A stretch of 64,000 nucleotides of DNA, taken from assembly GCA_031414535.1 (NCBI GenBank), contig JANNVQ010000008.1, positions 24,106-88,105 on the forward strand. The letters run 5' to 3'. Positions within the stretch are counted from its first letter, which is position 1, and each line of letters opens with the position of its first letter. Under the pieces are notes generated by a model that saw only the letters and a list, made by a program, of their open reading frames with translations, was not told the DNA's origin and did no database searches. Source of the stretch: Gemmatimonas sp. Lineage in GTDB: Bacteria; Gemmatimonadota; Gemmatimonadetes; Gemmatimonadales; Gemmatimonadaceae. The position numbers and the translations under genes are program-made. Below, piece after piece: positions 31,747-50,426 of this stretch.

Positions 31747-32369
31747 CGATTCCATTGGACGACGTCCGGAACCTTTCGCGCGCTGCGCTCGACGCACTGC
31801 GTGAAGTGGCCAACATCGGCGCGGGGCACGCTGCGACGGCGCTCTCGCAGATTACCGGGCAGCGCATCATGATCTCGGTGCCGCAAATCAATGTGGCGGC
31901 TATCGAGGATGTGCCGAATCAGATCGCCTCGGGCGAGGAACCAGTGGCCGGCATCGCCATCAAAGTCGAGGGCGATCTCACGGGCCTCACGCTACTCGTG
32001 TTCCCGAAGCCGATCGCCTATCGCATCGCGAGCCTGATGATGGGCGGCCGGCCGGTGACGCAGCTCGGGGCCATCGAGGAAAGCGCACTCAAGGAGGCGG
32101 GGAACATTCTCTCGGCGGCGTATCTCAATGCGCTGGCGGAGTTTCTTGGCATGCGCATTCTCAACTCACCGCCTCTGCTTGCGGTGGACATGAGCGATGC
32201 CATTCTGAGCTCCACCTATGTGGAGACCTCGCAAGGTGCCTCGCACGTGTTCTGCGTGGAGAGCGAGTTCCAGCTCGCCAACGATACGCTTCCGTTGCGA
32301 GGTTTCTTCCTGCTGCTGCCTGACCCGCCATCGCTGCGGGCCATGCTCACGGCCATCAAGGTTTCGTGA
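31743..32369 (+). CDS. cheC: CheY-P phosphatase CheC
   Basis: Two ExxN motifs: DALREVANIGAGHAATALS and SALKEAGNIL. Confidence 0.93.
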   Translation: MTIPLDDVRNLSRAALDALREVANIGAGHAATALSQITGQRIMISVPQINVAAIEDVPNQIASGEEPVAGIAIKVEGDLTGLTLLVFPKPIAYRIASLMMGGRPVTQLGAIEESALKEAGNILSAAYLNALAEFLGMRILNSPPLLAVDMSDAILSSTYVETSQGASHVFCVESEFQLANDTLPLRGFFLLLPDPPSLRAMLTAIKVS

Positions 32370-35074
32370 CCCGTCCGTCCATCGCCGTGTCAACGCGGGA
32401 CCGCGAGGTCCTGCGTGGCTTTGCGCGCCGCATTGATGCGGCGGACGCCGGCGCGCACAATAACCTGGGTGTGTTGTATTACACGAAGGGATTGTACGAA
32501 GAAGCGGTAGAGGCCTTCACGAAGGCGCTCGACCTGGACCCCAAGATGCAGGTGGCGCAGCGCAATCTCGAAGTCGCCTACTTCAACACGGGCTACTACG
32601 ATTCGCGCGTCGCGGAGCTGCGTGAGCGCTTGCGCCACAAGCCCGATGATCGCGATGCTCGTTGGGAGCTCGGCCGCGCCTTCGCCTTGCTCGGTCAGCC
32701 AGAAGACGCCATCCCGGAATTTCAGGCGCTCCTCGCGCTGCGTCCGGGCGACGTGGGCACGATGATCCAGCTGGGACTCGCCGAGAAGGCGGCGGGGCGC
32801 CTGGGCGTGGGACTGAGTTGGTTCCGCACCGCCTTGGGTCGCGATCCGCAGAGTGGATTGCTGCATTTCTACGTGGGCGAGGTGCTGTACAATCAAGGCG
32901 CGTTCGATGATGCGCTGAGCTCCTTGCATCGCGCCATCCAGTTGAATCCTGATCATCCGGACTCGCATTTCCTGCTCTCCTTCGTACTCGGCGACATGGG
33001 CCGCCACGATGAAGCGCAGGCCGCCTCCAAGCGCGCCATCCAGTTGAACCCGGCGCTTTCGCGGGCCCAAGCCAACCTCTCGCTCGACGAGTATGACCAA
33101 AAGAAGTACGAGCAGTTGGTGCCGGGACGTCAGGCAAGAAAGTCGCAGGCGCAAATGCGCATTGCCGAAGGCGAGCCCTTGGCGCACTACACGCTAGGGC
33201 AGGCGTTCCGCCAGCAGGGATTGCTTTCCGAGGCAAGTCGCGAGTACGACACCGCGCTGCTGCGGGGTGAGGATCGTGCGCTGGTGGTGCAGGCGATGGC
33301 CGAACTGCACTTGCTGCGCAAGGAACCGCAGCCGGCCATCGCGTTGTACGACGAGTTGCTGGCGCAGCAGTCTGATTCACCCAAGCTGTGGAACGAACGC
33401 GGCGTGGCCTTGCATCAAACTGGTGACCATGCGGCGGCGGCAGAGAGTTATGGCAAGGCGCTGCAGGTGGACCCGACCTACGTCATCGCGCGGAACAATC
33501 TCGCGGTGGCACTGTTCCACGACAATTCGCCCGAAGACTCGATTGACGAGTTCCGCGAGGCATTGCGTTCGAACCCGATGTTCATCAAGGCGCGGCTCAA
33601 TCTCGCGCTCTTGCTCGTGCGCGGGAAGCGTTTTCAGCTTGCGCTTGAGGCGTATCGGCAGGTGTTGGAGCACGACGCCGAAGCCCCGTTGGCCTGGAAT
33701 GGCGTGGGCTTGGTGCTCAGTGAGATGCGCCGGTTCGACGAGGCGCGCACGGCCTACGCCCGCGCCATTCAGTCCAAGCCGGATTTCGCCGAAGCGCATT
33801 ACAACTTGAGCTTCACGCTCTCCAATCTTGGCGACTACGCTGGGGCGCTGCGCGAAACCAAGCGTGCGCTGGAGATGGATCCGTACTACACGCCTCAGAC
33901 CTTCCAACTCGCCATTGACCTCGAGTTTGAGGACGTAGACCTAACGGTTGTGCCGGATTTGGGCGGCGAGAAGCGGATAAGCGGCGGGGTGGAGACCTTC
34001 AGCTTCGATAACTCGATCCTCGACTCCATCTTCAAGCAGCTTGATCCCGTGGTGGCGCCAGAACAGGCGCCAGCGGAGGAAGGTGATCCCTACGCCCTCG
34101 CGGAGGACTTCCTCTCAAAGGGGTTGGTCGATCGTGCGATGGCGGAGGTGAGGCGTGCTCTGGGGCGCGGCGCGGAACCAGCGCGGGGCGATGCTTTGCT
34201 CGGAGAGGCGTTTGGACGTCAGGGTGCCTGGGGCGATGCGCTCGAGCGCTTTGAAGCCGCTCGCCGAGTGGACGCGCGCAACACCGAGGCGCTACGCGGC
34301 GAGACCCAAGCCTTGCTCATGCTGGGGCGCGGCGCGGAAGCTGCGGCGCCCGCGGCCATCTTGCTTGAACTGCTTCCAACCGACGTGGATGCCTTGTTAC
34401 TCGTGGCGACGGCGCGCTTTGAGAGCGGTGACGCCCAAGGTGCGCTCGCAGTACTCGACGACGCACGGCGCGCCGATCCCACGCGCGCCGAGGTGCTGCG
34501 TGGCGTGGGCAACGTCCTGCGCGCGATGGAGAACATTGACGCCGCCATCTCCGCGTATCGTCATGCGCTTACGATTGACGGCGACTTTGCGGCCGTGCGC
34601 TACGACTTGGCGCAGTTGCTGATCACGCGTGGCGATTTCTCCGAGGCCGAGCGCGAGTTGCTGCTCGCGCTCGACGCCGTGCCCACCTACGCCGATGCAA
34701 CGCTGTCGCTGGCATCCTTGCACCGGCAGCGCGAGGAAACGGGGAAGGCACTGGCCTTGCTCGTGGACTTCCTCGAGCGCGATCCGTACTCGTTTGACGG
34801 GCTCGTGGCGCTGGGTGAACTGCTCCTCGACATGGGCCGCAATGAGGATGCTGCCTTTGCCTTCCAACGCGTGCTGCGCTTTGATCCCGCGCACGTGGGT
34901 GCCGTGTTCCATCAGGGTTTGCTCCTCTCACGCCAGCAGCGCTTTCGTGAGGCGGTAGCCTGCTTCCGACGCGTGGCCGAATTGGAGCCGCAGGGTGAGT
35001 TCGCCCGCCGAGCCTTCCGCGAAGCGCGCGCAATCGCGCAGCGCGTGGATGGCTTGGACGAGGAGGCGGGCTAA
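32366..35074 (+). CDS. Large cytoplasmic TPR protein (902 aa)
   Basis: Many TPR units (AHNNLGVLY...A.EAF.KAL.LDP) in arrays separated by linkers; no signal peptide. Confidence 0.9.
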   Translation: MTRPSIAVSTRDREVLRGFARRIDAADAGAHNNLGVLYYTKGLYEEAVEAFTKALDLDPKMQVAQRNLEVAYFNTGYYDSRVAELRERLRHKPDDRDARWELGRAFALLGQPEDAIPEFQALLALRPGDVGTMIQLGLAEKAAGRLGVGLSWFRTALGRDPQSGLLHFYVGEVLYNQGAFDDALSSLHRAIQLNPDHPDSHFLLSFVLGDMGRHDEAQAASKRAIQLNPALSRAQANLSLDEYDQKKYEQLVPGRQARKSQAQMRIAEGEPLAHYTLGQAFRQQGLLSEASREYDTALLRGEDRALVVQAMAELHLLRKEPQPAIALYDELLAQQSDSPKLWNERGVALHQTGDHAAAAESYGKALQVDPTYVIARNNLAVALFHDNSPEDSIDEFREALRSNPMFIKARLNLALLLVRGKRFQLALEAYRQVLEHDAEAPLAWNGVGLVLSEMRRFDEARTAYARAIQSKPDFAEAHYNLSFTLSNLGDYAGALRETKRALEMDPYYTPQTFQLAIDLEFEDVDLTVVPDLGGEKRISGGVETFSFDNSILDSIFKQLDPVVAPEQAPAEEGDPYALAEDFLSKGLVDRAMAEVRRALGRGAEPARGDALLGEAFGRQGAWGDALERFEAARRVDARNTEALRGETQALLMLGRGAEAAAPAAILLELLPTDVDALLLVATARFESGDAQGALAVLDDARRADPTRAEVLRGVGNVLRAMENIDAAISAYRHALTIDGDFAAVRYDLAQLLITRGDFSEAERELLLALDAVPTYADATLSLASLHRQREETGKALALLVDFLERDPYSFDGLVALGELLLDMGRNEDAAFAFQRVLRFDPAHVGAVFHQGLLLSRQQRFREAVACFRRVAELEPQGEFARRAFREARAIAQRVDGLDEEAG

Positions 35075-36054
35075 TGGCCATTGAAGGCCCGCTGAAGGAG
35101 CTCGGCATCCACGACGTCTTCCAACTGCTCGATCTGAGCCGGAAGACGGGGGTGCTCATCGTCACCTCGCAGCTTCGTGACAACGAAGGCGAGGTGCTGT
35201 TCGAGAATGGCAAGGTCATTTCGGCGAGCATCAAGTCCAATCCGCACCGCATCGGCGACCTACTCGTGCGCACAGGGCGGCTGACGGATGCGGATCTCGC
35301 ACGCGTGCGCGATTCGCAGGCTGCTGGCGACAAGCGCCGCTTCGGGGAAATCCTTATCGCCCTCGGCTTGGTCACGGCGCGCGAGATTGAGCGGCAGATG
35401 CGCTTGCAGATTGAAGCTGTGGTGTTTGAATTGATGGCGTGGTCCGAAGGAAACTTCCGGTTCACCGAAGGACTGGATGATGACGCCTTTCGCGATGCTT
35501 CGGCGCCCTTGGGCACAGAGTCGCTCCTGATGGAAGGCGCGCGGCGCATTGACGAATGGTCACGCATCGCGGATCGCGTACCCAACCTGTCGGTGATTCC
35601 TGACCTCGCGCCCGGCGACGCTGATCATCCAGCGCTGCTCGATCTGTTGCCGCAGGAGTGGAAGGTGTTGGCCATGATTGACGGCGCAACAGATCTGCGC
35701 ACCATCGCCGCGACGGTCTCGATGAGCGAGTTCGATGTGGCGCGCGTCATGTACGGACTCGTGAGCACGGGCGTCGTGATATTGCGGCAACCGACGCGCA
35801 ACAGTTCCACCATCGCGCTGCCGAGTGAACTCCGGAAGGCCTCGAAGCTCACGCCGCACGGTGTGGTGCCTTCGGCGCTGGTGCGTGGGGCGGAGTATTT
35901 CCGTCGCGGCGCACTCTCCGATGGAATCGCCACCTGGTCTGCGTTCATCGAGAGCACGCCGAAGTATCCGTCGGCTACAGACCTCCGCGACGCCGTGCGG
36001 GGCGCGACGAAGCTCGTGGAAGTGCTCGACCGGGAGGTGCCGCGTGAGCGGTGA
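35074..36054 (+). CDS. DUF4388 (PatA-N) protein with degenerate MshEN-like motifs
   Basis: MAIEGPLKELGIHDVFQLL...KTG.L, W.EG.F.F, LLMEGARRIDEW; RIGDLLVRTG...RFGEILIALG. Confidence 0.85.
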   Translation: MAIEGPLKELGIHDVFQLLDLSRKTGVLIVTSQLRDNEGEVLFENGKVISASIKSNPHRIGDLLVRTGRLTDADLARVRDSQAAGDKRRFGEILIALGLVTAREIERQMRLQIEAVVFELMAWSEGNFRFTEGLDDDAFRDASAPLGTESLLMEGARRIDEWSRIADRVPNLSVIPDLAPGDADHPALLDLLPQEWKVLAMIDGATDLRTIAATVSMSEFDVARVMYGLVSTGVVILRQPTRNSSTIALPSELRKASKLTPHGVVPSALVRGAEYFRRGALSDGIATWSAFIESTPKYPSATDLRDAVRGATKLVEVLDREVPRER

Positions 36055-36856
36055 CATTCGGTCCATGAGCGAGCAGCTCGCCGCGGATCCGGCGAGCTTG
36101 GTGTTCTTGCCGCTCGCCGAGCAGCTGCTCGGACGCGGGGAGCTGGCGCACGCATCACGTGTGGCGCGGAAGGGTGCCGAGCGGCACGCGCATCGCGCTG
36201 ATGTGCACGACTTGGTGGCGCGCATCGCGCTCGCGCAGGGCGAGGAGACCGCGGCCGAGCGCGCCTGGATTTCGTCACTGGCCATTGCGCCGGACTTTGG
36301 CGCCGCGCATCGTGGACTGGGCTTCCTCTGCTATCGTCAGGGGCGCTGGGACGACGCGCAGACGCACCTGGCCAAGGCGCGCACGATGACGCCCGGTGAT
36401 CCGGCGCTCGAGGCCGCGTGGGAAGCGCTCCACGTGGCGCGCACGGAAGACTTACGTACGGCACAGGCCGCTCCCGAACTTTCCGCCGCCGAGTCAGCTG
36501 GTGCGTTGTTTGCGGGACAGATCGGCGAGACGGGACAGGTGGCGCTTTTGCTCGACTCCGATGGTTTGGTGGTGGCAGGGCAGTACATGACAGCTCAGGG
36601 CGAGGATCTGGGCGCCATCATCGGCGCGCACTTGTCTGGCGTCAGTGACGAAGCGGCGCGCGCTATGCGGCACTTTGGGCTTGGCACCTGGACGCGCATC
36701 GCGATTGAAACGGAAGCCGCCACCGTAGTGATGGCGCCCACGGGAGAGAGCGTCACTCTCGTGGCGGCGCCGCGCGATGTTCCCTTGGGCTTGGTGCGAC
36801 GGACGCTTGATCACTGCGTGCAGGCCGCCGCCGCGTGGTTGGGAGGTGGCGTATGA
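36044..36856 (+). CDS. TPR + Roadblock/LC7 domain protein
   Basis: N-terminal TPRs (DPASLVFLPLAE); C-terminal ALLLDSDGLVVAG...LGLVR Roadblock pattern. GTG start at 36044. Confidence 0.8.
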   Translation: MSGDIRSMSEQLAADPASLVFLPLAEQLLGRGELAHASRVARKGAERHAHRADVHDLVARIALAQGEETAAERAWISSLAIAPDFGAAHRGLGFLCYRQGRWDDAQTHLAKARTMTPGDPALEAAWEALHVARTEDLRTAQAAPELSAAESAGALFAGQIGETGQVALLLDSDGLVVAGQYMTAQGEDLGAIIGAHLSGVSDEAARAMRHFGLGTWTRIAIETEAATVVMAPTGESVTLVAAPRDVPLGLVRRTLDHCVQAAAAWLGGGV

Positions 36857-37194
36857 GTAGCTTTGCCCCGCTACTCGCCACCGTGACGCGGCACCGCGGC
36901 GTGATGGCCTGTCTGGTTGTGGCCGAGGAAGATGGCATCGTCGTGGAGGGCACGGCGCAGATGGGCGTGGACACTGCGGCGTTCGCCGCGCTCACGGCTT
37001 CGCTCTACCGGAAGGCCGCACGGGCCGCGGCGAGTGCTGGATTCGGCGGCACCAGCTTCTGCGATTTGGAGGCCCAACAGGGTCGGGTGCTCGCAGCGGG
37101 CCGCAACGGTCTCGTGCTGGTGGCAGTGGCTGAGCCGCGGGCGAATCTCGGTTTGCTGCGCGTGGAACTGCTGAAGGCGGCGGCGGCCCTGTGA
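36853..37194 (+). CDS. Roadblock/LC7 domain protein
   Basis: GVMACLVVAEEDGIVV...FAALTASL...ANLGLLR. Confidence 0.85.
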   Translation: MSSFAPLLATVTRHRGVMACLVVAEEDGIVVEGTAQMGVDTAAFAALTASLYRKAARAAASAGFGGTSFCDLEAQQGRVLAAGRNGLVLVAVAEPRANLGLLRVELLKAAAAL

Positions 37195-37664
37195 TTCGTC
37201 ACTCCATCACTATTGGTTGGGCCGATGCGCCACTCAAGCGCTTTGTGGATGACGCGCGTTTGGAACACGCCATCTTGATGCACACGAGTGGCCAAGTGCT
37301 CGCACAGGTTGGATTTCAACGCTCGATTGACGTGCAGACCGCCTGCGCGCTCTCGGCGGCCATCAACGCGTCGGCCGATCACTTGGGGAAGATGGTGGAC
37401 GGGCGCCCGTTCACCGGTCTGCATTATGGTGGGAAGGCGCGACAGATTTATCTTGGCTTACTGCAGACATCGAGCGGTCCGCTGCTGCTGCTGGCCGTGT
37501 TCGACACCGAAAGTTCGCTGGGCATCGTGCAGCTCTATCTCAAGGAGCTGCAGGCGCACGTAGCGGCAGCCGCTCCGGCGGCGGAAGACGAATCGCCGGC
37601 CTTGGCTGAGAACTTTGAGTCGGATCTCAACCGCAACCTCGCCCAACTCTTCGGGAGGGGCTGA
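37191..37664 (+). CDS. mglB: MglB-like Roadblock protein (putative GAP)
   Basis: SGQVLAQ.GF, ALSAA, FDTESSLGIVQL, acidic C-terminal helix ending QLF; directly upstream of mglA. Confidence 0.8.
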   Translation: MIRHSITIGWADAPLKRFVDDARLEHAILMHTSGQVLAQVGFQRSIDVQTACALSAAINASADHLGKMVDGRPFTGLHYGGKARQIYLGLLQTSSGPLLLLAVFDTESSLGIVQLYLKELQAHVAAAAPAAEDESPALAENFESDLNRNLAQLFGRG

Positions 37665-37698
37665 TGCGAGACTCCATCCATCACCGCGAGACCGTCCA

Positions 37699-38298
37699 GT
37701 GAGCCTCGTTAACTACGCCACGCGCGAGATCACCTGCAAGATTGTCTACTACGGACCAGGTCGGTCCGGCAAGACGACCAATCTGCATTACATCCACGGT
37801 CAGGTGCCGACGGATCGTAAGGGGCAGATGGTGTCGCTCGCCACGCAGACCGACCGCACGCTGTTCTTTGACTTCCTGCCGATTGATCTCGGAACCATCT
37901 CCGGCTTCTCGACGAGATTCCAGCTGTACACGGTGCCCGGGCAGGTCTACTACCAGACCACGCGCAAGCTTGTGCTGCAAGGCGCGGACGGGGTGGTGTT
38001 TGTGGCGGATTCGCAGTCGCGGCAGCTGCAGGAGAACATCGAAAGTTTTCAGGACCTGCACGAGAATTTGGCGGAGCAGGGCGTGGACGCGCGCAGCATG
38101 CCGCTGGTGGTGCAGTACAACAAAATTGATTTGCCCGACGAATTACGCACGCCGGTGCCCGAGCTCGAGGACGCCATCAATTTCCGCGGCGTCCCATCGT
38201 TCTCCGCGGACGCGCTGCACGGCCCGGGGGTGTTTGAGACGCTACGCGGCATCTCGGAACAGGTGTTGCGTAAGCTGAGCGCTGGGCGGAACGGCTAG
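37699..38298 (+). CDS. mglA: MglA family small GTPase
   Basis: REITCKIVYYGPGRSGKTTN, DRTLFFDFLP, YTVPGQ, YNKID. GTG start at 37699. Confidence 0.96.
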   Translation: MSLVNYATREITCKIVYYGPGRSGKTTNLHYIHGQVPTDRKGQMVSLATQTDRTLFFDFLPIDLGTISGFSTRFQLYTVPGQVYYQTTRKLVLQGADGVVFVADSQSRQLQENIESFQDLHENLAEQGVDARSMPLVVQYNKIDLPDELRTPVPELEDAINFRGVPSFSADALHGPGVFETLRGISEQVLRKLSAGRNG

Positions 38299-38299: not shown

Positions 38300-40201
38300 A
38301 TGCGTCTCGACCCTCGCTTCACCTTTGAACGCTTGGTGGTCGGCGCGGCGAATCGTCTCGCGGCCGCGGCGGCGCGGGCCGTGGCCGAAGCGCCGGGCAC
38401 GACCTACAACCCGCTCTTCATCTACGGCGGCTCCGGGCTCGGGAAGACGCATCTGCTCACCGCCACGGCGCATCTGCTTCAGCACCTGCAGCCGAAGGCC
38501 GAAGTGCTCGCGCTTTCGCTGGACGAGTTCTCGGAGCAGTATCACGCCGCCGTGAGCGCGGGCGAGACATCGGCCTTTGGGCATCGCATTGCCGGGGTGG
38601 ACCTGCTGCTGCTCGACGATTTGCAGTTTGTGACTGGGCGGCGGGAGATGCAGGCGGAATTGTTGCGCCTCTTCTCCGTGATGCAGGACAGCAATCGGCA
38701 AATTGTCTGCGCCAGCGACCGTCCACCGTCAGAGATTGCCGACGTGGATGAGCGTTTGATTTCGCGGATGGCGGGTGGCCTCGTGGTGGATGTGGGGCTG
38801 CCGGAGTATGAGGCTCGCGTGGCCATTCTTCGCTCGGCCATCGCTGAGCGCGAGATTAGTGTGCCCGATGGCGCGGTGGAGCGCCTCGCCGAGCGCGGCA
38901 TCTCCAGTGTGCGCGAGTTGCAGGGCTTGCTGAATCAGTGGATTGCACAGGAGTCCATGGGCGCCAGTGCTCGCAAGATGCCAACGCCGATGCCCGGCGG
39001 TGTGGATGCGTTACGGCCCTCCGGCGAGTTCCTCTCCTTTCTCTCCGATGTGGCCGCTGTGGTGCAGGAGCAGGTGGAGACATGGCAGGTGCGTCTGCGC
39101 GAGGTGATTGCGTACTGGAAGGGCGAGGGCTATCGCACGGCGGTGCTCGAGCGCGCCCTCGCCCTGCCAAGCGAACCCGATGTGCAGGGACTGCTTGCCA
39201 TTTATGTGCAGGCGGTGGATCACTTGCGGGTGCTGGAGCGCGAGGCCACGGCGGTGGACGGATCCCTTGGCGGTCACGAACTGTTTCGCGATCCCGAGCG
39301 CCTACAAGAAGCCGAAGAGTTCGTGGACAAGGCACTCGCTGGTGAGTTCCCCCCGGGTGGGCCCAATCCGTCGTTTACGCGCGAAGGCTTTGACGTTGGC
39401 TCGGCAAATCAGCTCGCCGTGCACGCTGCCGACGCCGTGATTGCCCAGCCGGGTACCCGCTACAACCCCTTGCTCATCACGGGGCCGAGCGGCGTGGGCA
39501 AGACGCACCTCGTGCACGCTATCGGTAACGCCATTGCCGCGCGCAGCGAGGGGCAGGTGCTGGCGGCCTGCGTGCATGCGCAGGCGCTGGTGGATGAATT
39601 GATCGCGGCCATTCAACAGGGCACGGTGGAGCGGTGGAGAGCGCGCTACCGTGCGGCCGGTATCCTGGTGATTGACGACATCCAGTTCCTCGCGGGTAAG
39701 GAGCGCACGCAGGACGAGTTCTTCTTCGTATTCAATGCGCTCATCGAGGACGGCAAACAGATTATCCTCTCGTCGGATCGCGTGCCGTCCGAGATACCCG
39801 ACCTTGCCGCGCGCCTGCGGTCGCGCTTCGAGGGCGGACTCATAGCGGAGATTCAGTCGCCGGACCGTCCGTTGCGCGAGAAGCTTGCGGCGCGATTCCT
39901 CGCGGGATTGGGCCGTGCCGCACCGCCCGAACTGCTCGATGTGATCTGCGATCCCACCGTGCGTAGTGTGCGCGAACTCATTGGCGTGGTGAACCGCTTG
40001 GCGGCGGCGGCGGAAGCCTTGGGCGTTCCGCTCGATGCGGCGCTTGCGCGTCAGGAGCTTGGTCTGGGCGCCGCAGCGAGCGCGACCATCGCGCCGCCGG
40101 CCGCGGCCGCGAGCGCTGGCGATCGTACGTTCTTGGACCGTGAGCGCGTGGTCTGGGAATGGGCTGATCTGAGCGGGCGCCTCATCGAGGAGCTTCGCTA
40201 A
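38300..40201 (+). CDS. Protein with two tandem DnaA-type AAA+ modules, lacking DnaA domains I and IV
   Basis: Two copies of F..F/L.VG.AN.LA, YNPL.I.G.SG.GKTHL, hhhDDhQF, SDR.PSEI, L.SR..GG, SVREL.G; no C-terminal HTH. Confidence 0.88.
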   Translation: MRLDPRFTFERLVVGAANRLAAAAARAVAEAPGTTYNPLFIYGGSGLGKTHLLTATAHLLQHLQPKAEVLALSLDEFSEQYHAAVSAGETSAFGHRIAGVDLLLLDDLQFVTGRREMQAELLRLFSVMQDSNRQIVCASDRPPSEIADVDERLISRMAGGLVVDVGLPEYEARVAILRSAIAEREISVPDGAVERLAERGISSVRELQGLLNQWIAQESMGASARKMPTPMPGGVDALRPSGEFLSFLSDVAAVVQEQVETWQVRLREVIAYWKGEGYRTAVLERALALPSEPDVQGLLAIYVQAVDHLRVLEREATAVDGSLGGHELFRDPERLQEAEEFVDKALAGEFPPGGPNPSFTREGFDVGSANQLAVHAADAVIAQPGTRYNPLLITGPSGVGKTHLVHAIGNAIAARSEGQVLAACVHAQALVDELIAAIQQGTVERWRARYRAAGILVIDDIQFLAGKERTQDEFFFVFNALIEDGKQIILSSDRVPSEIPDLAARLRSRFEGGLIAEIQSPDRPLREKLAARFLAGLGRAAPPELLDVICDPTVRSVRELIGVVNRLAAAAEALGVPLDAALARQELGLGAAASATIAPPAAAASAGDRTFLDRERVVWEWADLSGRLIEELR

Positions 40202-41818
40202 ATGGCCATCAAGGGCTCACTCAAGGAAGCGTCGCTGCCGGACGTGTTGCAGTTGCTCGCCATGGGCAAGAAGAGCGGCTGTTTGTCGGTGACGCATCGT
40301 AGCAACTTTGGCTCGATCTACTTTGACAAAGGGAAGATCAGCTACGCGAGCATCGTGAACCGTCGCGACCGGTTGGGCGACATTCTCGTCAAGGCTGGCG
40401 TGCTCGCGCAGGAGCAACTTGACGAAGCCATTGCGCTGCAGGCCAAGGCCCGTGGTCAGCGACTCGGCGATCTGCTCGTGGCGCATGGCATGATGACGCG
40501 CGAGCAACTGCACGCGCAGATTCGTATTCAGATTGAGGAAGCGGTCTACTTCTTGTTCACGTGGGCCGAGGGCACGTTCAACTTCGAGTCGGACATCAGG
40601 CCCGATGAGCAGGACTTCTTGGTGGCCATCAATCCGGAGTCGCTGCTGCTGGAAGGCGCGCGGCGCGTGGATGAGTGGAGTCTGATTGAGAAGAAGATTC
40701 CGTCATTCGATGTGGTGTTTGAAGTTGATCGACGTCGTGTGGCGGAAAGTTCGCCGAAACTCACCACCGAGCAGCAGACCCTGCTGCCCTTGATTGACGG
40801 TCGCGCCGATGTGACCGCACTCGTGGACGCCAGTGGCTTGGTGGAGTTTGATGTGGGGAAGGCGCTTTTCGGCCTGGCCACGGCGGGCTTCCTGCATCGG
40901 GTGGGGCGGTCGAAGGCGCCGGAGGAAGTGGCGACGGATGTGCGCGTGGAGGAGCATCGCAACCTCGGCGTGGCCTTCTTCCGTGCCGGGATGCTCGATG
41001 AAGCGGTGCGCGAGTTCCGTCGCGTGACCGAGTTGCGTCCGGAAGATTTGGGGGCGCGCTTTCAGCTGGGCGTGGCGCATCTGCGTCTGGGCAAGTGGGC
41101 TGAAGCGCTCACGCATCTCGAGGCGGCCGCGCGGCAGCGGGGTGCCAAGGCGGCCGTGCACCACAATCTCGCATTGGCCCTCGAGCGACTGGGGCGCGAA
41201 GATGAAGCAAAGGCCGCATTGGAGACGGCGCTCAGCCGTGGTGGGGACGAGGAGCCGCGCATCCATCTCTCGCTGGGTGTGCTCGCCCTGCGGGCCGGGG
41301 ACTTCGCCGCGGCCGACGAGCATTTTATGCGCGCTCGCCCGCTCTACGGGAATCGGCTACCGACGGCGGTGTGGTTTCATTCGTCGGCGCTGGCGGCGGC
41401 CTTGGCGGGACAACTCGAGAAGACGGTGGCGTTGCTAACCGAGGGCGTGGAGGCGCACCCGCACGCGGCGGCGCTGCACAACAATCTTGCCGTGGCCTTG
41501 ATCGCGCTCGGGCGAGGGGACGATGCGTTGAAGGCGGTGCTGCGCGGCTTGCAGGAAGATCCTGGACTCTCGCCGCTGCATCGCAATCATGGCGATCTCC
41601 TGCTCGCGCAAGGCAATCACCAAGGCGCGCTCGAGGCCTACACGCAGGCCGTGCGGCATCACGAGACATTAGGCCCCGAGGTCTGGGCCCGGCTCGGCGC
41701 ATTGCGTTTGGAAGGCGGTGATCCGGACGCGGCGCGCAAGGCGTATGAGCAGGCCTTGGTGCTCGACCCTGGGCATGTGGCGGCCAACGAGGGTCTCACG
41801 ACCCTGCGCTTGGGATGA
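40202..41818 (+). CDS. DUF4388 + MshEN-like + TPR protein
   Basis: MAIKGSLKEASLPDVLQLL, tandem RLGDxLVxxG motifs, LLLEGARRVDEW, C-terminal TPRs. Confidence 0.87.
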   Translation: MAIKGSLKEASLPDVLQLLAMGKKSGCLSVTHRSNFGSIYFDKGKISYASIVNRRDRLGDILVKAGVLAQEQLDEAIALQAKARGQRLGDLLVAHGMMTREQLHAQIRIQIEEAVYFLFTWAEGTFNFESDIRPDEQDFLVAINPESLLLEGARRVDEWSLIEKKIPSFDVVFEVDRRRVAESSPKLTTEQQTLLPLIDGRADVTALVDASGLVEFDVGKALFGLATAGFLHRVGRSKAPEEVATDVRVEEHRNLGVAFFRAGMLDEAVREFRRVTELRPEDLGARFQLGVAHLRLGKWAEALTHLEAAARQRGAKAAVHHNLALALERLGREDEAKAALETALSRGGDEEPRIHLSLGVLALRAGDFAAADEHFMRARPLYGNRLPTAVWFHSSALAAALAGQLEKTVALLTEGVEAHPHAAALHNNLAVALIALGRGDDALKAVLRGLQEDPGLSPLHRNHGDLLLAQGNHQGALEAYTQAVRHHETLGPEVWARLGALRLEGGDPDAARKAYEQALVLDPGHVAANEGLTTLRLG

Positions 41819-42660
41819 TGGCGGCGGCCGAGGGTGACGAGGCCGCCTTCCGCGCCCTTCTCGAGCAGGTGGCGCGAGATAAGGGCTTTGCCTGCGGCAA
41901 CTATAAAGACGGTTGCCTGCGCCGCCGCGTGAGTGTGCGGATGCGCGCGCGCGGTCTGAGCGACTACGGCGCCTATGCCACGCTCTTGCGTCAGGACGAT
42001 GCGGAGTACGAGCGGCTGATGGACACATTGACCATCAATGTGACGCGATTGTATCGCGATGCTGATGTGTGGGACAGCTTCGCGGCCGAGATTCTGCCCG
42101 AGCTCTGGAGTCGCACGGAGTCCGGGCTCAACGTGTGGAGCGCGGGCTGCTCGTCTGGCGAGGAACTCTACACGCTCGCCGCAATCATTGACCATCATGC
42201 GGTGGCGAGTGGATCGGAGCGGCGGCTGAAGTCCACGCGCATCGTGGGCACGGACATTGATGCCACATCGCTACGTGCGGCTCGCATTGGTAGCTACGCG
42301 GAAGCGGCCTTCAAAGAGATGCCAGCGGCCTTACGCGATCGTTATTTCATTGTGGACGGTGCGCCCGCTTCACCCGGGACGCGCACGGCCGCAGCTGAGT
42401 TGCGTGCGCTCGTGCGTGTGGAACGTCGCGACGTGATCCTCGAGGATTCACCAGGGCAGGGATTCGATCTCATCACCTGCCGCAACCTGCTGATTTATCT
42501 TGACCGCACCGCGCAGGAAGCAATCTTTCGCCGCTTCCACTCGGCGCTGGCGCCGCACGGGATTCTGATGTTGGGCAAGGTGGAAACCATGCTGGGGCCG
42601 GCGCGGCAGCTCTTTGCGTCGCGTCATCAGCGTAGCCGCATCTTTCGGAAGGCCTCGTGA
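41815..42660 (+). CDS. cheR: Chemoreceptor methyltransferase CheR
   Basis: LTINVT.LYRD, WSAGCSSGEE.Y, GTDID, DLITCRNLLIY. Confidence 0.94.
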   Translation: MMAAAEGDEAAFRALLEQVARDKGFACGNYKDGCLRRRVSVRMRARGLSDYGAYATLLRQDDAEYERLMDTLTINVTRLYRDADVWDSFAAEILPELWSRTESGLNVWSAGCSSGEELYTLAAIIDHHAVASGSERRLKSTRIVGTDIDATSLRAARIGSYAEAAFKEMPAALRDRYFIVDGAPASPGTRTAAAELRALVRVERRDVILEDSPGQGFDLITCRNLLIYLDRTAQEAIFRRFHSALAPHGILMLGKVETMLGPARQLFASRHQRSRIFRKAS

Positions 42661-43136
42661 GCGTGCAGCACGTGCGCATCGCACACATTGCGGTGGCCAA
42701 GGAGGGCGGGCGGCTCGTCGCCGTGGGTCTTGGATCATGCGTGGCGCTGACGCTCTACGACCGCGTGAAAGGCATTGGGGGAATGGCGCACATCCTGCTG
42801 CCTGACCCGAGCGCGGCGCGCGACGCTTCTAATCCCGGGCGTTTTGCTTCCACCGCCGTGCCCTTGCTTCGTGAGGCCCTGATGGCGGCGGGAGCGCGCG
42901 GGCCGTTCGAGGCCAAGCTGGTGGGCGGCGCGGCGCTCTTTGGCAGCATGCTCGGGAGCGGGGGCCAGCAGATGGGCGAGCGGAACGTCGAGGCAGCCCG
43001 GAAGGCGCTCGTGACCCTGTGCATTCCGATTGCAGCGAGTGAAACGGGCGGTGTCAGCGGACGCACGGTGTCCTTTGACGTGAGCGATGGCCAGCTTGAG
43101 GTGCGGAGTGTGCGCGGCGGGATTCGTGTGCTCTAG
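42657..43136 (+). CDS. cheD: Chemoreceptor deamidase CheD
   Basis: GLGSCV, GGMAHILLP, AKLVGGA, GERNV, ETGG..GRTV. Confidence 0.94.
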   Translation: MSVQHVRIAHIAVAKEGGRLVAVGLGSCVALTLYDRVKGIGGMAHILLPDPSAARDASNPGRFASTAVPLLREALMAAGARGPFEAKLVGGAALFGSMLGSGGQQMGERNVEAARKALVTLCIPIAASETGGVSGRTVSFDVSDGQLEVRSVRGGIRVL

Positions 43137-43159
43137 CTTGGCGCGAAGAGGGGACTGCC

Positions 43160-44230
43160 GTGTCCAGTGAAGCGCGCACCGTACTCGTCGTGGACGACTC
43201 GGCGCTGCTTGGTGCCGTCGTCCGCGAACTCATTGAGGGGTTTGGCGGATTTCGCGTGGTGGGCGTGGCGCGCGACGGAGAAGAGGCGCTGCGCATGGTG
43301 CATGCGCTAAATCCCGATCTGGTCACGCTGGACATCGAGATGCCCGGTGTGGATGGGCTGCACGCCCTGGGCTACATCATGAGTGAGTGCCCGCGACCCG
43401 TCATCATGGTGAGCGGCGCGACCCTTCGCGGCAACGTGGACCTGACGATCCGCGCCTTTGAGTTGGGCGCAGTGGAGTTCGTGCGTAAGCCCGATCAACT
43501 CAGCCCGAGTGCTTGGGCGACGGTGGCCCCGCGTCTGCACGATGCGCTGCGCGCCGCGTCTGGTGCGAACTACGGGGTGCCGTTGCTGGCGCGACCGCAG
43601 GAGCGTACCCGTGTGACCGCGCGCCCGCTGCGTGGCGCCACGGAAGTGGTGGCCATCGCCGCGTCCACCGGTGGACCACGTGCCTTGGCAGAAGTGATTC
43701 CCGGATTGAGTGCGCAGTGCGAGGCTGGCGTGGTGATTGCGCAGCACATGCCGCCAGGCTTTACCGCGGGACTCGCGCGGCGGCTTGACCAGCTCTCGCA
43801 CCTACCGGTGCGTGAGGCGCAGAGTGGCGAACCGCTCCTCGCGGGGCAGGTCTACATCGCCCCGGGCGGGCGGCACCTCACCGTAATTGCCGAGGGCGAG
43901 GGCGCACGATTGCACTTGAGTGATGCCCCGGCGGAGCATGGTGTGCGCCCGGCGGCGGATCCGCTTTTTCGAAGCGTGGCCAAAGCATTCGGTGCGCGTG
44001 CGCTTGGTGTGGTGCTGACGGGGATGGGACGCGATGGAAGCGCGGGCCTGCGTGACCTGCTGGGCGCTGGCGGCCGCGCCTTGGTGCAAGACCGAGCGTC
44101 GAGCGCCGTCTATGGGATGCCCGGCCAAGCGCGCGCGCTCGTGAACGAAGCCGACGAGCACGCCCTCGGCGCGATGGCCGCGGCGATCGAGCATCGCCTG
44201 GCGGACATCCGTCGCCGAGTGTCGCGGTGA
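43160..44230 (+). CDS. cheB: Chemotaxis methylesterase CheB
   Basis: Receiver domain (DDSA, LDIEMP) plus ASTGGP, QHMP, LTGMGRDG catalytic motifs. Confidence 0.96.
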   Translation: MSSEARTVLVVDDSALLGAVVRELIEGFGGFRVVGVARDGEEALRMVHALNPDLVTLDIEMPGVDGLHALGYIMSECPRPVIMVSGATLRGNVDLTIRAFELGAVEFVRKPDQLSPSAWATVAPRLHDALRAASGANYGVPLLARPQERTRVTARPLRGATEVVAIAASTGGPRALAEVIPGLSAQCEAGVVIAQHMPPGFTAGLARRLDQLSHLPVREAQSGEPLLAGQVYIAPGGRHLTVIAEGEGARLHLSDAPAEHGVRPAADPLFRSVAKAFGARALGVVLTGMGRDGSAGLRDLLGAGGRALVQDRASSAVYGMPGQARALVNEADEHALGAMAAAIEHRLADIRRRVSR

Positions 44231-44667
44231 CGGGGCACGAGCGCGTTTTCATTGGTCGCGTGGGTGACGAGTTGGTCGCCTTCGCGCTCAACTCCGTGCG
44301 TGAAGTGCTAGACACTCCCATCATTCAGCCTCTGCCGTTGACGCCCGAGGCCCTGCTCGGACATCTCACGCTGCGCGAGGCCCACTTATCGGTCCTTGAC
44401 GCCGGGGTCCTGCTGGGTATCCAGTCCAACCTGAGCGCCGACGGCATTGCACTCGTGTTCGCCGAGGGTTTTGCGCTGCGGCTCGACGACGCCGTGGATG
44501 TGTGGGAGCGCGATGCGGCGGCCTTGTTACCCGTGCCGGCGGGGACGGACCGCGTAGGCCTGTTGCGGGGCCTGCTACGACAGGGCCACAATGTGGCGGC
44601 ATTTGTTGATGCGGCGGCGCTCAGCGCCCGTGCACTCGCTACTTTACGAGAACACCTCCACGCATGA
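44227..44667 (+). CDS. cheW: CheW-like protein (2), divergent
   Basis: VREVL...PLPLTPEALLG.LTLR..HLSVLD. Confidence 0.75.
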   Translation: MTGHERVFIGRVGDELVAFALNSVREVLDTPIIQPLPLTPEALLGHLTLREAHLSVLDAGVLLGIQSNLSADGIALVFAEGFALRLDDAVDVWERDAAALLPVPAGTDRVGLLRGLLRQGHNVAAFVDAAALSARALATLREHLHA

Positions 44668-45149
44668 CTACCGCCACCGACACTCGCCGTTCACTCGTCA
44701 CCTGCGCCGCCGCCGGCGAGCTCTTTGCGCTCGACGTGGCCAGGGTGGAGCGCGTGCTGCGCTACACTCCGCCGCGCCGTGTGCCCAACGCGGCGGCATG
44801 GATGGCGGGCGTGATTGCGGTGGGCGATCGTTTGGTGCCCGTGCTGGATTTGCGCGAGCGCATGGGACTTGAGGCCGCCGAGCCGACGGCTGCGTCGCGC
44901 ATCGTGGTGCTTACGCTCAGCGATGGTGCCGTCGGCTTCATTGTTGATGCGGTAGACGAAGTGGTGGCCGTGGATGCCAATGCGGTGGAGGAGGCCCCGG
45001 CCGTGTATCGCGGCTTGGCGCGGGCATTCGTGCAGGGGATCGTGCGGCGCGGGGAGAAGCTGTACATCCTCCTCGCCGCTGACCCACTCGTGACATCACA
45101 GGAGCGGCTCGTCTTGCGGGCCGCTGTGGAGGAGCATACGGATGGCTGA
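44664..45149 (+). CDS. cheW: CheW (3)
   Basis: FALDVARVERV...VPNA..WMAGVI...PVLDLRER...GFIVDAVDEV. Confidence 0.9.
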   Translation: MTTATDTRRSLVTCAAAGELFALDVARVERVLRYTPPRRVPNAAAWMAGVIAVGDRLVPVLDLRERMGLEAAEPTAASRIVVLTLSDGAVGFIVDAVDEVVAVDANAVEEAPAVYRGLARAFVQGIVRRGEKLYILLAADPLVTSQERLVLRAAVEEHTDG

Positions 45150-46002
45150 TGAAACGCTTGCGACCTACAAGGCGCAGTACAGCGCGATTGATGCGCAGCT
45201 CGAGGCCGGCGTTGTGCCAGCGGAGCGCGCCAAGGTGAAGAGCGACATCGTCGGACTCTTCAAGTCCGTCGAGGCGCAGATTGCCGAACTCACGCAGCTG
45301 AAAGACGACATCAAGCAGCTGGTGGACAAGTGGAAGGGTCAGCAGACGGTGAGCGGCGTGGCCGCCCCTGAGTTCCAAGGGGAGAAGCCCGTGGTGCACG
45401 CTGATCATATTGGCGCGAGCACCTTCATCGAGAAGGGTTGGAGTCGCTTGTCACTCGGCGACTACGAAGGGGCGGAGAAGGCGCTGAGCCGCGCAATCGA
45501 GCTCTCACCCGGCGATCCGCAAAGCGAAGCGCTGCTGGGCTGGGCGCAGATGCTGCAGGAGAAGCATGACGACGCCCTCATGAACTTTCAAAAGGTGTTG
45601 ATGCGCGAGCCGGCTAATGCCTTGGCTCGCATCAACGTCGGATACATCTGCCTCAAGAAGAAGATCTTCGGAGAGGCCATCGAGCATCTGTCTAAGGCCA
45701 TTCGTCTCGACAACGACCGCAAAGCCACGCTCTACGCGCACTTTTATTTAGGGCTCGTGTATTTGGAGCGCGAGATGTACGAGGATGCGCAGACCTTCTT
45801 CCAGAAGACGCTTGTGCTCGGCCCCAACCTGATTGAGGCCTATTACGAACTCGGACGCGCGCATTGGTTCAACGATGAGCAGGACCTTGCGCGCACGACC
45901 TGGCAGAAGGGACACAGCACGAACAAGTTCAATCCTTGGGGCAAGAAGTGCGCGGAGACGTTGGCGCTCGTGGATGCTGGTGGCGAGCTGACTCGGGCGT
46001 GA
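45142..46002 (+). CDS. Coiled-coil + TPR protein
   Basis: N-terminal heptad-like helix followed by about five TPRs; overlaps cheW. Confidence 0.85.
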   Translation: MADETLATYKAQYSAIDAQLEAGVVPAERAKVKSDIVGLFKSVEAQIAELTQLKDDIKQLVDKWKGQQTVSGVAAPEFQGEKPVVHADHIGASTFIEKGWSRLSLGDYEGAEKALSRAIELSPGDPQSEALLGWAQMLQEKHDDALMNFQKVLMREPANALARINVGYICLKKKIFGEAIEHLSKAIRLDNDRKATLYAHFYLGLVYLEREMYEDAQTFFQKTLVLGPNLIEAYYELGRAHWFNDEQDLARTTWQKGHSTNKFNPWGKKCAETLALVDAGGELTRA

Positions 46003-46997
46003 GCCTGAGGGTAGCGCTGCGGCGCGTGCTGGCCGCGGCGCTCTTTGCCGCGACACTGTTCGTGGGGACATTGTCCGCCGTGCAGCTGGTACCGAGCACG
46101 AGTGATTCGCTGCCCCCGAGCGCGAGCATCATTGCGGCGGGCCGATTTTCCATCGTGCACTTTGCGAGCGACTTGCGGCTAGCCCGCAGCTTCGCGGATG
46201 CGGCGCTCGCCAGCGACACATTTCCTGGGCTCGCGCGCCCTACGGCACCGGTACTGATTCTCGTGGCGCCGGATGATGAGACCTTTCGGTCGTGGGTGGG
46301 GGCGGGTGCCCCCGAGTGGGGCGACGCCATTGCGTTTCCGGCGCTGCGGCGGATTGTCATGCGCGGACGGGACGCTGCGGGCTCCGGGGGCGACCCCCGC
46401 ATCACGCTTCGGCATGAGTTGGCACATCTGGCACTCCACGAGGCGTTGGGGCCAGGCATTCCGCGATGGTTTGACGAGGGGTACGCCTCATACGCGGCTG
46501 GCGAGTGGGGACGCGACGAAGTGCTGGCGACGAGCTTCGGTTTGGTGTGGCGCGGGATCCCGACGCTGGCGGGCTTGGATTCCGGCTTTTTTGAGGGTGC
46601 CGAACGAGCCCAGCGCTCGTACGCCCTCGCGCACCGGGCGGTCGCGGAACTCGCGGTCATGGATCGGGAGCGCGGCCTCGCCTTGCTCCTTGGGCATTGG
46701 CGCAGCGAAGGGAGTTTCGAGCGGGCCCTCAGGCGGGCTCACGGCATGAGTTCCCTGGACTTTGAGCGGCATTGGAAGGCCCGCATTCGGCGGCAGTTCG
46801 GTGCGCTCGCCTTGGCAGCCGACCTGACGGTGCTCACGCTGGCCCTCACCATTTTCCTCGGTCCGATGTGGTGGCAGCGTAGGAAGCGGATGAAGGATCG
46901 GCTGGAACGGATGCGCGAGGCCGACCGTCTGCAGGAGGAGCGGGAGCGGGCGAGCGCGCTAGCCACCCTTTTGGGTGAGGCGCCCCCGCGGCCCTAG
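45999..46997 (+). CDS. Membrane-anchored HEXXH zinc metallopeptidase-like protein (peptidase MA-like)
   Basis: Hydrophobic N-terminus, LRHELAH, PRWFDEGYA, C-terminal TM helix and charged tail. GTG start at 45999. Confidence 0.8.
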   Translation: MSLRVALRRVLAAALFAATLFVGTLSAVQLVPSTSDSLPPSASIIAAGRFSIVHFASDLRLARSFADAALASDTFPGLARPTAPVLILVAPDDETFRSWVGAGAPEWGDAIAFPALRRIVMRGRDAAGSGGDPRITLRHELAHLALHEALGPGIPRWFDEGYASYAAGEWGRDEVLATSFGLVWRGIPTLAGLDSGFFEGAERAQRSYALAHRAVAELAVMDRERGLALLLGHWRSEGSFERALRRAHGMSSLDFERHWKARIRRQFGALALAADLTVLTLALTIFLGPMWWQRRKRMKDRLERMREADRLQEERERASALATLLGEAPPRP

Positions 46998-47049
46998 GGT
47001 GTTAAAATGAGAGTCGGATTAAGGCTTAATGAACAAGTCCGAACCTTGG

Positions 47050-47078
47050 TTGACTCTCATTACAGGCACCCCTAGACT
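47050..47078 (+). promoter_or_regulatory. Putative sigma70 promoter for the small ORF and tRNA-Val
   Basis: TTGACT-N17-TAGACT, 9 nt upstream of ATG 47088. Confidence 0.6.
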
Positions 47079-47087
47079 CCCCCCCCT

Positions 47088-47267
47088 ATGTCAGAGCGCG
47101 CAAATGCATCCGCTGGGGCTTTGTCCCGGCCGCTGGTCTGGTGGGGCTTGTCAGCCGCAAGTCTCGTCGTGGGGTACGCTGATTTATGGCGTGGGGGGGA
47201 GACGGTGGCCCCGCTCCTGCTCGTGCTCGGCTACTGCGTCCTGATTCCGATAGCCATTCTGAAGTAA
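47088..47267 (+). CDS. Small two-TM membrane protein (59 aa, DUF3098-like)
   Basis: Manual translation MSERANASAGALSRPLVWWGLSAASLVVGYADLWRGGETVAPLLLVLGYCVLIPIAILK; below the ORF-track cut-off. Confidence 0.7.
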   Translation: MSERANASAGALSRPLVWWGLSAASLVVGYADLWRGGETVAPLLLVLGYCVLIPIAILK

Positions 47268-47298
47268 CGCGCCATGGCGCGGTGGGAACTGTATCACC

Positions 47299-47372: not shown

Positions 47373-47453
47373 TTTTAAGTCCCGGTTGGGAACCGACGGA
47401 ACTGTGGTCCCGCTCCTGGGATAAGAAGTCCAACACCTTGTGAGGATTTAACT

Positions 47454-50424: not shown

Positions 50425-50426
50425 AC

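Follow-up and report, generated by a model that had tools for sequence, protein, structure and literature searches.

A tandem DnaA-type ATPase in an MglA/chemosensory operon of Gemmatimonadota, with a C-terminal tail predicted to dock on a PATAN-TPR neighbour

Background

To our knowledge, the AAA+ module of the replication initiator DnaA is known solely from the initiation of replication and from proteins that regulate it directly, while initiator-clade relatives of the module load helicases or help transposases. Here, a gene of Gemmatimonas sp. was analyzed whose 633-aa product, dDnaA, holds two DnaA domain-III modules and which lies in a chemosensory and polarity operon on contig JANNVQ010000008.1 (assembly GCA_031414535.1, positions 24,106 to 88,105; this stretch of 64,000 nucleotides is the window, and coordinates below count from its first letter). 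An initial annotation of the locus had proposed a repurposed initiator-clade ATPase that is not the initiator itself. The reading favoured here, to which we assign a probability of about one half, is that dDnaA is an ATP-binding switch or scaffold of the initiator clade, tethered to the PATAN-TPR adaptor of an MglA/Che polarity system that probably serves type IV pili.

With DnaA, the modules of dDnaA share the whole of domain III, i.e., the Walker A and B motifs, sensor I, the box VII arginines, and sensor II. The protein differs from DnaA in lacking domains I-II and the helix-turn-helix (HTH) of domain IV, in having two modules per chain together with an extra helical domain and a tail, and in being encoded in a Che/Mgl/PATAN operon of a genome with a separate, complete dnaA. 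Hda carries an N-terminal clamp-binding motif. Hda, HdaA, and HdaB (the last treated as a DnaA-related protein in the consulted part of PMC7049699) resemble dDnaA in being DnaA-derived, in having no DNA-binding domains, and in acting via AAA+ contacts, but Hda consists of one module, whereas dDnaA falls under the cut-off of the Hda model TIGR03420 and has neither an N-terminal extension nor a replisome context. DnaC and IstB belong to the same initiator/helicase-loader clade of AAA+ proteins, and the IstB_IS21 model gives secondary matches on dDnaA; nevertheless, dDnaA is far under the cut-offs for both and has no helicase or transposase partner, while the true IstB of the genome is found on contig C25. 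Two modules per polypeptide are also present in the type II tandem AAA+ proteins (p97, NSF, Rix7), to which Foldseek aligns the whole dDnaA model with a TM of about 0.25-0.30. These, however, form a different clade of classic, ring-forming, substrate-threading ATPases, whereas the dDnaA modules are DnaA-type, with a 130-residue insert between them. DnaA-type AAA+ modules form open spirals.

Two further systems are comparable to parts of the locus. C-terminal EEVD-type peptides of Hsp70/Hsp90 are bound by the TPR clamp domains of Hop or CHIP, and for the acidic C-terminal peptide of dDnaA, too, a position in a TPR groove is predicted (the orthologue in genome G116 even ends in EEVD); the dDnaA tail is longer, with about 35 residues whose WxWP core and terminal helix would span the whole solenoid, and its binding is a prediction. 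In the Frz system of Myxococcus xanthus, as far as the consulted parts of the literature go, Che-type genes also occur with MglA, MglB as a Roadblock GTPase-activating protein, and TPR proteins (the effector SgmX), the likely output being type IV pilus polarity. The genes around dDnaA differ in forming one array of about 19 genes that includes PATAN proteins and a DnaA-type ATPase, and those parts of the Frz/Mgl literature contain no mention of such an ATPase. Literature searches turned up no paper that ties a DnaA-like ATPase to MglA, PATAN, or the chemosensory genes of Gemmatimonadota, and none that describes the dDnaA family.

Domain architecture of dDnaA

The gene and its parts are as follows (aa, amino acid positions in dDnaA; pLDDT, per-residue confidence of the structure model).

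38300..40201, forward strand: dDnaA, a 633-aa product that combines two DnaA domain-III modules and lacks domains I and IV (translation of the open reading frame (ORF), Pfam, NCBIfam)
38300..38965, forward strand: module 1, aa 1-222 (Walker A K49, Walker B D106/D107, box VII R152/R156, sensor II R205)
38966..39073, forward strand: disordered spacer, aa 223-258 (pLDDT <50; weakly conserved)
39074..39337, forward strand: helical domain of no known family, aa 259-346, with the motifs EFxxFLSDV, WxGEGYRT, and FRDPxR (conserved across 20 loci)
39365..40033, forward strand: module 2, aa 356-578 (Walker A K401, Walker B D459/D460, box VII ARLRSR, sensor II R558)
40091..40198, forward strand: C-terminal tail, aa 598-633, with a conserved core at aa 614-633 (rEKvvWxWPd...rliEElr); a predicted TPR-docking peptide (conserved in double and single-module forms)

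The initial annotation had described a 633-aa ORF with two complete DnaA domain-III modules, placed 1 bp after mglA and abutting the next gene, and this description was borne out. The mglA ORF ends at 38298, dDnaA starts with an ATG after a gap of 1 nt, and the next ORF begins at 40202. Bac_DnaA (PF00308) matched in two stretches of dDnaA (339.2 bits summed, Pfam), and a hidden Markov model (HMM) made from both halves set the module bounds at aa 1-222 and 356-578, with 35% identity between the modules (78/221, E 3e-39). On the DnaA model TIGR00362 (437 positions), each module covers positions ~103-322, while domains I-II (1-102) and domain IV (323-437) are unmatched, and the domain IV family Bac_DnaA_C (PF08299) is not found in the ORF, in agreement with the proposed absence of domain I and of a domain IV HTH. 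Residue 2 of dDnaA aligns to position 103 of TIGR00362, hence the N-terminal domains I-II are lacking; the AAA+ alignment begins at residues 2-4 of the N-terminus (MRLDPRFTFERL), which leaves no N-terminal extension.

All motifs quoted in that annotation for the Walker, sensor, and box VII elements and for the tail were located in the translation. Walker A reads GGSGLGKT in module 1 and GPSGVGKT in module 2, Walker B reads LLLDD and LVIDD, and box VII reads ERLISR and ARLRSR, whereas sensor 1 (SDR) and sensor 2 (VREL) are the same in both; the tail sequence is FLDRERVVWEWADLSGRLIEELR. The set of Walker A Lys, Walker B Asp-Asp, sensor I, arginine finger, and sensor II is complete twice, and both modules, judged by these residues, carry the motif set of an initiator-clade AAA+ ATPase.

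The AlphaFold2 model of dDnaA (58 homologues) had a mean pLDDT of 87.9 and a pTM of 0.51, with disorder at aa 223-258 and 591-599 and a tail of middling confidence; its best Foldseek match was domain III of Bacillus subtilis DnaA (8bv3, TM 0.90, rmsd 1.5). The region between the modules, which had been taken for a helical linker of ~130 aa, is helical only in part, as its first ~36 residues (aa 223-258) are disordered and a compact helical domain follows at aa 259-346. Modelled separately, this domain was confident (pLDDT 84.1), but its best structural match (Z 5.7) was in the noise range for helical bundles. No Pfam family matched the helical domain, the tail, or the regions after each module. 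The linker was also considered as a decayed domain IV, which is conceivable but was not supported: BLAST against the genome's own DnaA gave only a weak gapped extension, no DnaA chain was among the structural matches listed, and there was no Pfam match. An Atlas search with the linker alone returned no usable match.

The stop codon of dDnaA (TGA, 40199-40201) is followed immediately and in-frame by the ATG of the PATAN-TPR gene, so the loss of this single stop would join both proteins. Such a fusion of a DnaA module with DUF4388 (PATAN) was seen in P0274, a 694-aa protein from a metagenome contig.

Conserved core of the family

In an alignment of 58 proteins, the Walker residues of both modules (K49, D106, K401, and D459) were invariant and the sensor II arginines R205 and R558 near-invariant. 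The helical-domain motifs (EF..FLSDV, W.GEGYRT, FRDP.R) were strongly conserved, as was the tail (rEKvvWxWPd…rliEElr), with W621 near-invariant. Across the wider family, the two halves of the protein fare differently. Single-module proteins composed of a module, the helical domain, and the tail occur in genomes G049 and G106, and in G084 a lidless single module is followed by the helical domain and then, after an acidic spacer, by the tail. Module 2 is lidless in G027, G116, and G067, and its lid is missing in 38/237; in G116 it has additionally lost both Walker motifs while keeping box VII (RLRSRFEGGL). Among 92 non-redundant two-module proteins (some of them fragments), the module 1 site (Walker A Lys and first Walker B Asp) was intact in all 92 and the nucleotide site of module 2 in 70, while an arginine finger was present in module 1 of 70 and in module 2 of 78. 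Where the module 2 site was dead (n = 22), the module 1 finger was always kept, and where it was live, that finger was lost in 22/70; the set behind this covariation is small, made up of related members, and includes fragments, and no mechanism is drawn from it.

Because module 2 is lidless, Walker-dead, or absent in several lineages, the core of the family, as seen in these alignments, is module 1 with the helical domain and the C-terminal tail (EKvvWxWP…liEEl) and not the tandem. The covalent pseudo-dimer proposed earlier is thus present in this protein but is not its conserved essence. A tree built from 71 module sequences grouped module 1 with the single-module forms (SH-aLRT 97) and placed module 2 in a clade of its own (96), on the DnaA side; both clades largely mirrored the genome groups and each other. 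A tree of the modules against DnaA had been suggested with the first description of the locus; it yielded these two supported clades, with module 2 nearer to DnaA, but did not settle a common origin, as forcing all family modules together cost 0.40 log-likelihood units (p-AU 0.468) and a single origin was not rejected. For module 2, an internal duplication and a second capture of a DnaA domain III cannot be told apart.

PATAN-TPR as the predicted partner

Three neighbouring genes are needed to place dDnaA in its operon.

37191..37664, forward strand: mglB-like Roadblock protein (E 5.8e-8 to M. xanthus MglB)
37615..38298, forward strand: mglA, with a true start probably downstream of 37615 (E 3.1e-71 to M. 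xanthus MglA over aa 5-199)
40202..41818, forward strand: PATAN(DUF4388)-TPR protein, 538 aa, with an MshEN-like cyclic di-GMP (c-di-GMP) motif (Pfam; NF053729 51.7 bits vs. cut-off 38)

By homology, the MglA and MglB of the operon are bona fide, and dDnaA belongs beside the MglA/MglB polarity module; the gene that the initial annotation had named mglA is correctly identified by its match to the M. xanthus protein. Gene position was compared in 20 loci hand-picked to span seven family-level groups. dDnaA was located directly upstream of the PATAN-TPR gene in 20/20 loci and directly downstream of mglA in 19/20. The exception (G116) has the order IleRS, an unassigned ORF, dDnaA, PATAN-TPR, and Peptidase_MA, without Che or Mgl genes nearby, and still keeps the dDnaA and PATAN-TPR pair. 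Three further operons have divergent DnaA-like genes in the same place, and in three operons (G036, G047, and G114) dDnaA was cleanly lost.

A TPR protein was suspected as the partner because dDnaA ends in an acidic peptide that is conserved, TPR proteins abound in the operon, PATAN-TPR is the only universal neighbour, and the TPR end is lost together with dDnaA. Full-length dDnaA was therefore modelled in complex with the TPR domain (aa 240-538) of PATAN-TPR in three runs and alongside three controls. The ipSAE (a score of model confidence) was 0.72 (runs 0.72, 0.72, and 0.52), and the best of the controls reached 0.00; in the calibration of the tool, the mark was reached by 116/157 solved complexes and by 2/215 mismatched pairs. 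The runs shared at least 68% of the contacts, and the pLDDT of the partner did not fall below 83. On dDnaA, every confident contact was within aa 598-633; on the partner, such contacts were within aa 260-494. Since V617/V618/W619 contact TPR residues ~393-462 and the terminal helix (R627-I629) contacts residues ~291-353, the tail is predicted to thread the whole groove of the PATAN-TPR solenoid.

The PATAN-TPR proteins of the three operons without dDnaA (G036, G047, and G114) lack the last ~75 residues, i.e., the last two TPRs, which are present in all 21 rows of the alignment that come from operons with the gene (21/21). This co-loss supports the predicted docking of the tail on the TPR domain. 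Judged by gene order and by the modelled complex, it is PATAN-TPR, rather than MglA, that is both the best-conserved neighbour of dDnaA and its predicted physical partner.

Alternatively, the protein could act on MglA directly, with the AAA+ modules or the helical domain binding MglA-GTP or acting on its nucleotide cycle, and with the TPR contact being secondary. The 1-nt spacing after mglA, the adjacency of both genes in nearly all of the loci, and a helical domain that is conserved yet unexplained would all suit such a role; on the other hand, G116 keeps dDnaA beside PATAN-TPR with no mglA nearby, and operons retain mglBA after the loss of dDnaA. Taken together, we consider direct regulation of MglA, or an effector role under it, doubtful.

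The MshEN-like c-di-GMP motif of PATAN-TPR is located at aa 57-105 and scores over its cut-off. In two of the genomes without dDnaA, G036 and G047 (loci L044 and L046), exactly this segment is also deleted (alignment columns 55-108).

Relation to DnaA and to replication

The genome (3.70 Mb, 98.4% complete) was searched for a canonical dnaA and scanned with the DnaA families, two checks suggested at the outset. PF00308 gave four matches, namely a 558-aa frame on contig C57, the two dDnaA modules, and a weak one on C25, while the sole Bac_DnaA_C match was on C57; the dDnaA ORF accordingly contains Bac_DnaA twice and no Bac_DnaA_C. The C57 protein matches positions 1-436 of the 437 of TIGR00362 (506.1 bits) and is a full-length DnaA. 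Because of this dnaA on C57 and because dDnaA lacks domains I and IV, dDnaA is, by its gene content and domain composition, not the replication initiator, and the proposal of a repurposed initiator-clade ATPase holds. The match on C25 (G000:C25:662-1414, reverse strand) is an IS21-type IstB helper ATPase (283.1 bits vs. cut-off 200), the only other initiator-clade match in the genome.

The warning that automated pipelines could mislabel the gene as dnaA also proved justified. dDnaA reaches 467.9 bits on TIGR00362 (cut-off 343.9) because the scores of its two modules are summed, whereas a single-module relative attains only 243.4 bits, and family members are named 'chromosomal replication initiator protein DnaA' in public sources, alongside the 'DnaA/Hda family protein' of NCBI. 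Models of other families were not passed: the Hda model TIGR03420 gave 148.8 bits in two stretches (cut-off 194.8), the IstB model NF038214 gave 95.2 bits (cut-off 200), and the DnaC model NF005931 gave 24 bits (cut-off 357). In the genome, PF00308 finds just DnaA, both modules, and IstB, and thus no Hda homologue.

The lack of an Hda of its own raises the possibility that dDnaA caps, co-assembles with, or inactivates the true DnaA in an Hda-like manner, so that initiation would be gated by chemosensory or MglA signals. Both modules are about 40% identical to domain III of the genome's own DnaA (module 2: 95/234), the box VII arginines and sensor II are retained in dDnaA and in most relatives, and the dcw cluster begins shortly downstream of the array in the window, in 7/20 loci, and in 3/3 further loci. 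Nevertheless, module 1 begins at residue 2 and leaves no N-terminal extension for a clamp-binding motif, the Hda model stays under its cut-off, and both the phyletic pattern and the position of the gene track the Mgl/PATAN operon and not dnaA. Moreover, three genomes that retain DnaA have cleanly deleted dDnaA, and of the two modules it is the dispensable one, module 2, that the tree places closer to DnaA. A link of this kind to replication is considered unlikely.

Alternatively, the modules could have retained ATP-dependent binding of single-stranded DNA (ssDNA) and tether the chemosensory/polarity complex to the nucleoid. The initiator-specific insertion is full-length in both modules in the alignments, and I435 and K467 of module 2 align with I190 and K222 of B. 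subtilis DnaA, which we take to be ssDNA contacts. However, K467 is shared by only about 40% of members, the module 1 counterpart of I435 is a His, dDnaA is without domain IV, and the operon has nothing DNA-related, which makes an anchor on nucleic acids very improbable.

Distribution and integrity of the gene

Presence was scored at E ≤ 1e-60, a threshold that canonical DnaA, with about 1e-54 at best, does not reach. dDnaA was matched in 73/121 sampled Gemmatimonadota genomes (71/119 without the two unpublished genomes G057 and G097), of which 19/29 belong to family group f1, 50/53 to f2, 1/1 to f3, and one each to f4, f7, and f8; it was found in 0/19 sampled genomes of other classes (f10-f12). 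The best 120 clusters at 90% identity were 59-96% identical and 576-673 aa long, and all cluster names among them that bear an organism were Gemmatimonadota (10/10). An exhaustive search of 50%-identity representatives added many more two-module clusters, down to about 32% identity, one of which is named Gemmatimonadales, and Gemmatimonadota was the commonest taxon of the Atlas clusters (321-663 aa). A restriction of dDnaA to Gemmatimonadota is likely on the basis of these cluster names and Atlas clusters. The orthologue of Pseudogemmatithrix spongiicola is 92% identical to dDnaA.

These data also bear on whether the fusion is real. A second sample taken in the same study yielded contigs that bridge, with 0 differences, the stretch from module 1 through the linker to module 2 (38726-39839) and both gene junctions, and with the conserved fusion, the absent HTH, and the separate dnaA on C57, none of the observations that the initial annotation had named as fatal to its proposal was made. 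A functionless gene, be it a decaying duplicate or an artefact of annotation or assembly, could be argued from the decay of module 2 in some lineages and from the loss of the gene in three operons. This is contradicted by the conservation data, with full-length orthologues down to about 32% identity in which the module 1 Walker A/B motifs are invariant, by a codon-position GC content that resembles that of the neighbouring genes, by the bridging contigs, and by two module trees that largely mirror each other and the genome groups; we find it hardly credible. Some 'joints' between the two Walker A regions in the second-sample data were examined as deletions and rejected, having sides of <30 letters at 90% likeness, and are read here as probable cross-matches of DnaA-like genes from other organisms.

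Two giant proteins of unknown taxon, P0169 (1990 aa) and P0180 (1876 aa), begin with an N-terminal MshEN c-di-GMP-receptor domain and a DnaA-type module. A stretch of about 1300 residues rich in Ala, Glu, and Leu separates this module from another of the DnaA type, and the proteins close with an EEERL-rich end, without a WxWP tail. In them, DnaA modules and c-di-GMP sensing are paired a second time and independently.

The surrounding operon

The array is co-directional and tightly packed, with about 19 genes on the forward strand between 29356 and 49340, followed by mraW and the division cluster. Beside the mglB-like gene, mglA, dDnaA, and PATAN-TPR, which follow one another in its middle, it contains the following features in gene order.

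29356..32369, forward strand: cheY, cheA, and cheC/cheX (Pfam)
32366..35074, forward strand: TPR protein, 902 aa (Pfam)
35074..36054, forward strand: PATAN (DUF4388) protein (Pfam PF14332, 105.1 bits)
36110..36856, forward strand: TPR-Roadblock protein, start approximate (Pfam TPR and Robl_LC7)
36835..37194, forward strand: Roadblock/LC7 protein (Pfam PF03259, 23.5 bits vs. cut-off 23), upstream of the mglB-like gene
41815..45149, forward strand: cheR, cheD, cheB, cheW, and cheW (Pfam), downstream of PATAN-TPR
45142..49340, forward strand: TPR protein, Peptidase_MA-like protein, and second TPR protein, the array end before mraW (Pfam)

PATAN domains bind the pilus extension ATPase PilB1 as well as PilC, and PATAN genes often neighbour mglA/mglB, according to the consulted part of a preprint (bioRxiv 10.1101/2021.06.11.447907). 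They also lie near some mglA genes in PMC4316618, the searched text of which mentions no DnaA-like gene (its supplementary table S2 was outside this scope). In the Gemmatimonas genome, seven T2SSE-type ATPase matches were over the cut-off, and no match to flagellin was found at 98.4% completeness.

Several side observations concern the chemosensory and MglA genes. Although cheR, cheB, and cheD are all present, a receptor gene is missing from the array, and the three MCP-signal matches of the genome are on other contigs (C37, C38, and C55). A second MglA paralogue (G000:C54:75748-76224) is about 60% identical over aa 4-164, with equivalents in most f1/f2 genomes, and several genomes without dDnaA have only that paralogue. 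Five genomes, drawn from different family groups, each have an MglA paralogue (53-59% identity) whose match runs across one in-frame TGA (G027:C34, G116:C2, G106:C4, G097:C10, and G061:C1; G097 is unpublished). In genus g27, e.g., at L015 (G107), the operon retains dDnaA and PATAN-TPR, but its MglA-like gene has diverged strongly (35% identity). Just past the end of the array begins the dcw cluster (mraW, ftsI, and murE; 49438-54177 in the window); mraW was within the fetched 20 kb in 7/20 loci and in 3/3 loci without dDnaA.

Discussion

The proposal of an initiator-clade switch or scaffold tethered to PATAN-TPR draws on the architecture of dDnaA, the integrity of its motifs, its conservation, its fixed gene position, the co-loss of the TPR end, and the predicted interface. 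From these, a mechanism in four steps may be outlined. The tail (aa ~598-633, core EKvvWxWP...liEEl) is predicted to dock in the concave TPR groove of the downstream protein, and the PATAN domain of that protein, together with its MshEN-like motif, would provide the link to the pilus motor and to MglA/MglB, by extension from the published work on PATAN. Module 1, with its invariant nucleotide site, would bind ATP; contacts of the box VII arginines, made either in cis to module 2 or in trans to further copies of the protein, would switch it between an assembled and a free state, and this switching would cluster or release the tethered adaptor. Together with sensor II, the box VII arginines would bring about an ATP-dependent association between modules or copies. 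Module 2 would be accessory, either as a second site or as a mere arginine-finger donor, and has apparently been trimmed repeatedly in evolution. ATP-dependent assembly, an output in pili or polarity, and control by MglA-GTP or c-di-GMP are what we infer beyond the observed features.

A number of points weigh against this proposal. The lineages of G036, G047, and G114 keep the operon without dDnaA, which makes the gene accessory, and as these genomes are related (genera g4 and g17), their co-loss of the TPR end may go back to one or two events instead of three separate losses. Within the TPR domain, the residues of the predicted interface are only marginally better conserved than the rest (entropy 1.40 vs. 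1.60), and 688 of 10,000 random subsets scored as low as the interface. The ipSAE measures the confidence of a model, and a pass may stem from mere resemblance to solved structures, among which complexes of TPR domains with peptides are common; furthermore, the prediction covers one TPR protein of an operon with four others, and a cousin of the true partner can pass as well. The pTM of 0.51 leaves the relative placement of the modules and the arginine-finger geometry within the chain unfixed in the monomer model. Both arginine fingers are missing in 7/92 of the non-redundant doubles, a loss that, judged from the alignments, fits ATP binding better than regulated hydrolysis. A DnaA-directed role is still conceivable because the genome has no Hda homologue, and no RNA run was listed for the dDnaA locus.

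A bolder extension would be that the DnaA-type modules still recognise DnaA or origin ssDNA and physically couple the origin or the initiator to the MglA/Che/type IV pilus apparatus, which we judge to be distinctly improbable. Gemmatimonadota are known for budding division, and if such a coupling were true, a budding, polar bacterium could gate replication or the positioning of its origin by chemosensory and c-di-GMP signals; we know of no bacterium with a direct wire between polarity signalling and replication initiation.

For databases, the locus flags a systematic annotation error, as the double-module dDnaA is named a replication initiator in public sources. For the family itself, the DnaA module appears here as a conserved, order-wide part of a polarity/chemosensory operon, with an added domain and a predicted docking peptide, and the tail and the TPR domain make up a concrete, testable pair of partners. 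The locus opens up an uncharacterised MglA system in Gemmatimonadota, and if the favoured reading is true, an initiator-type ATP switch would have been redeployed for the assembly of a protein complex unrelated to DNA.

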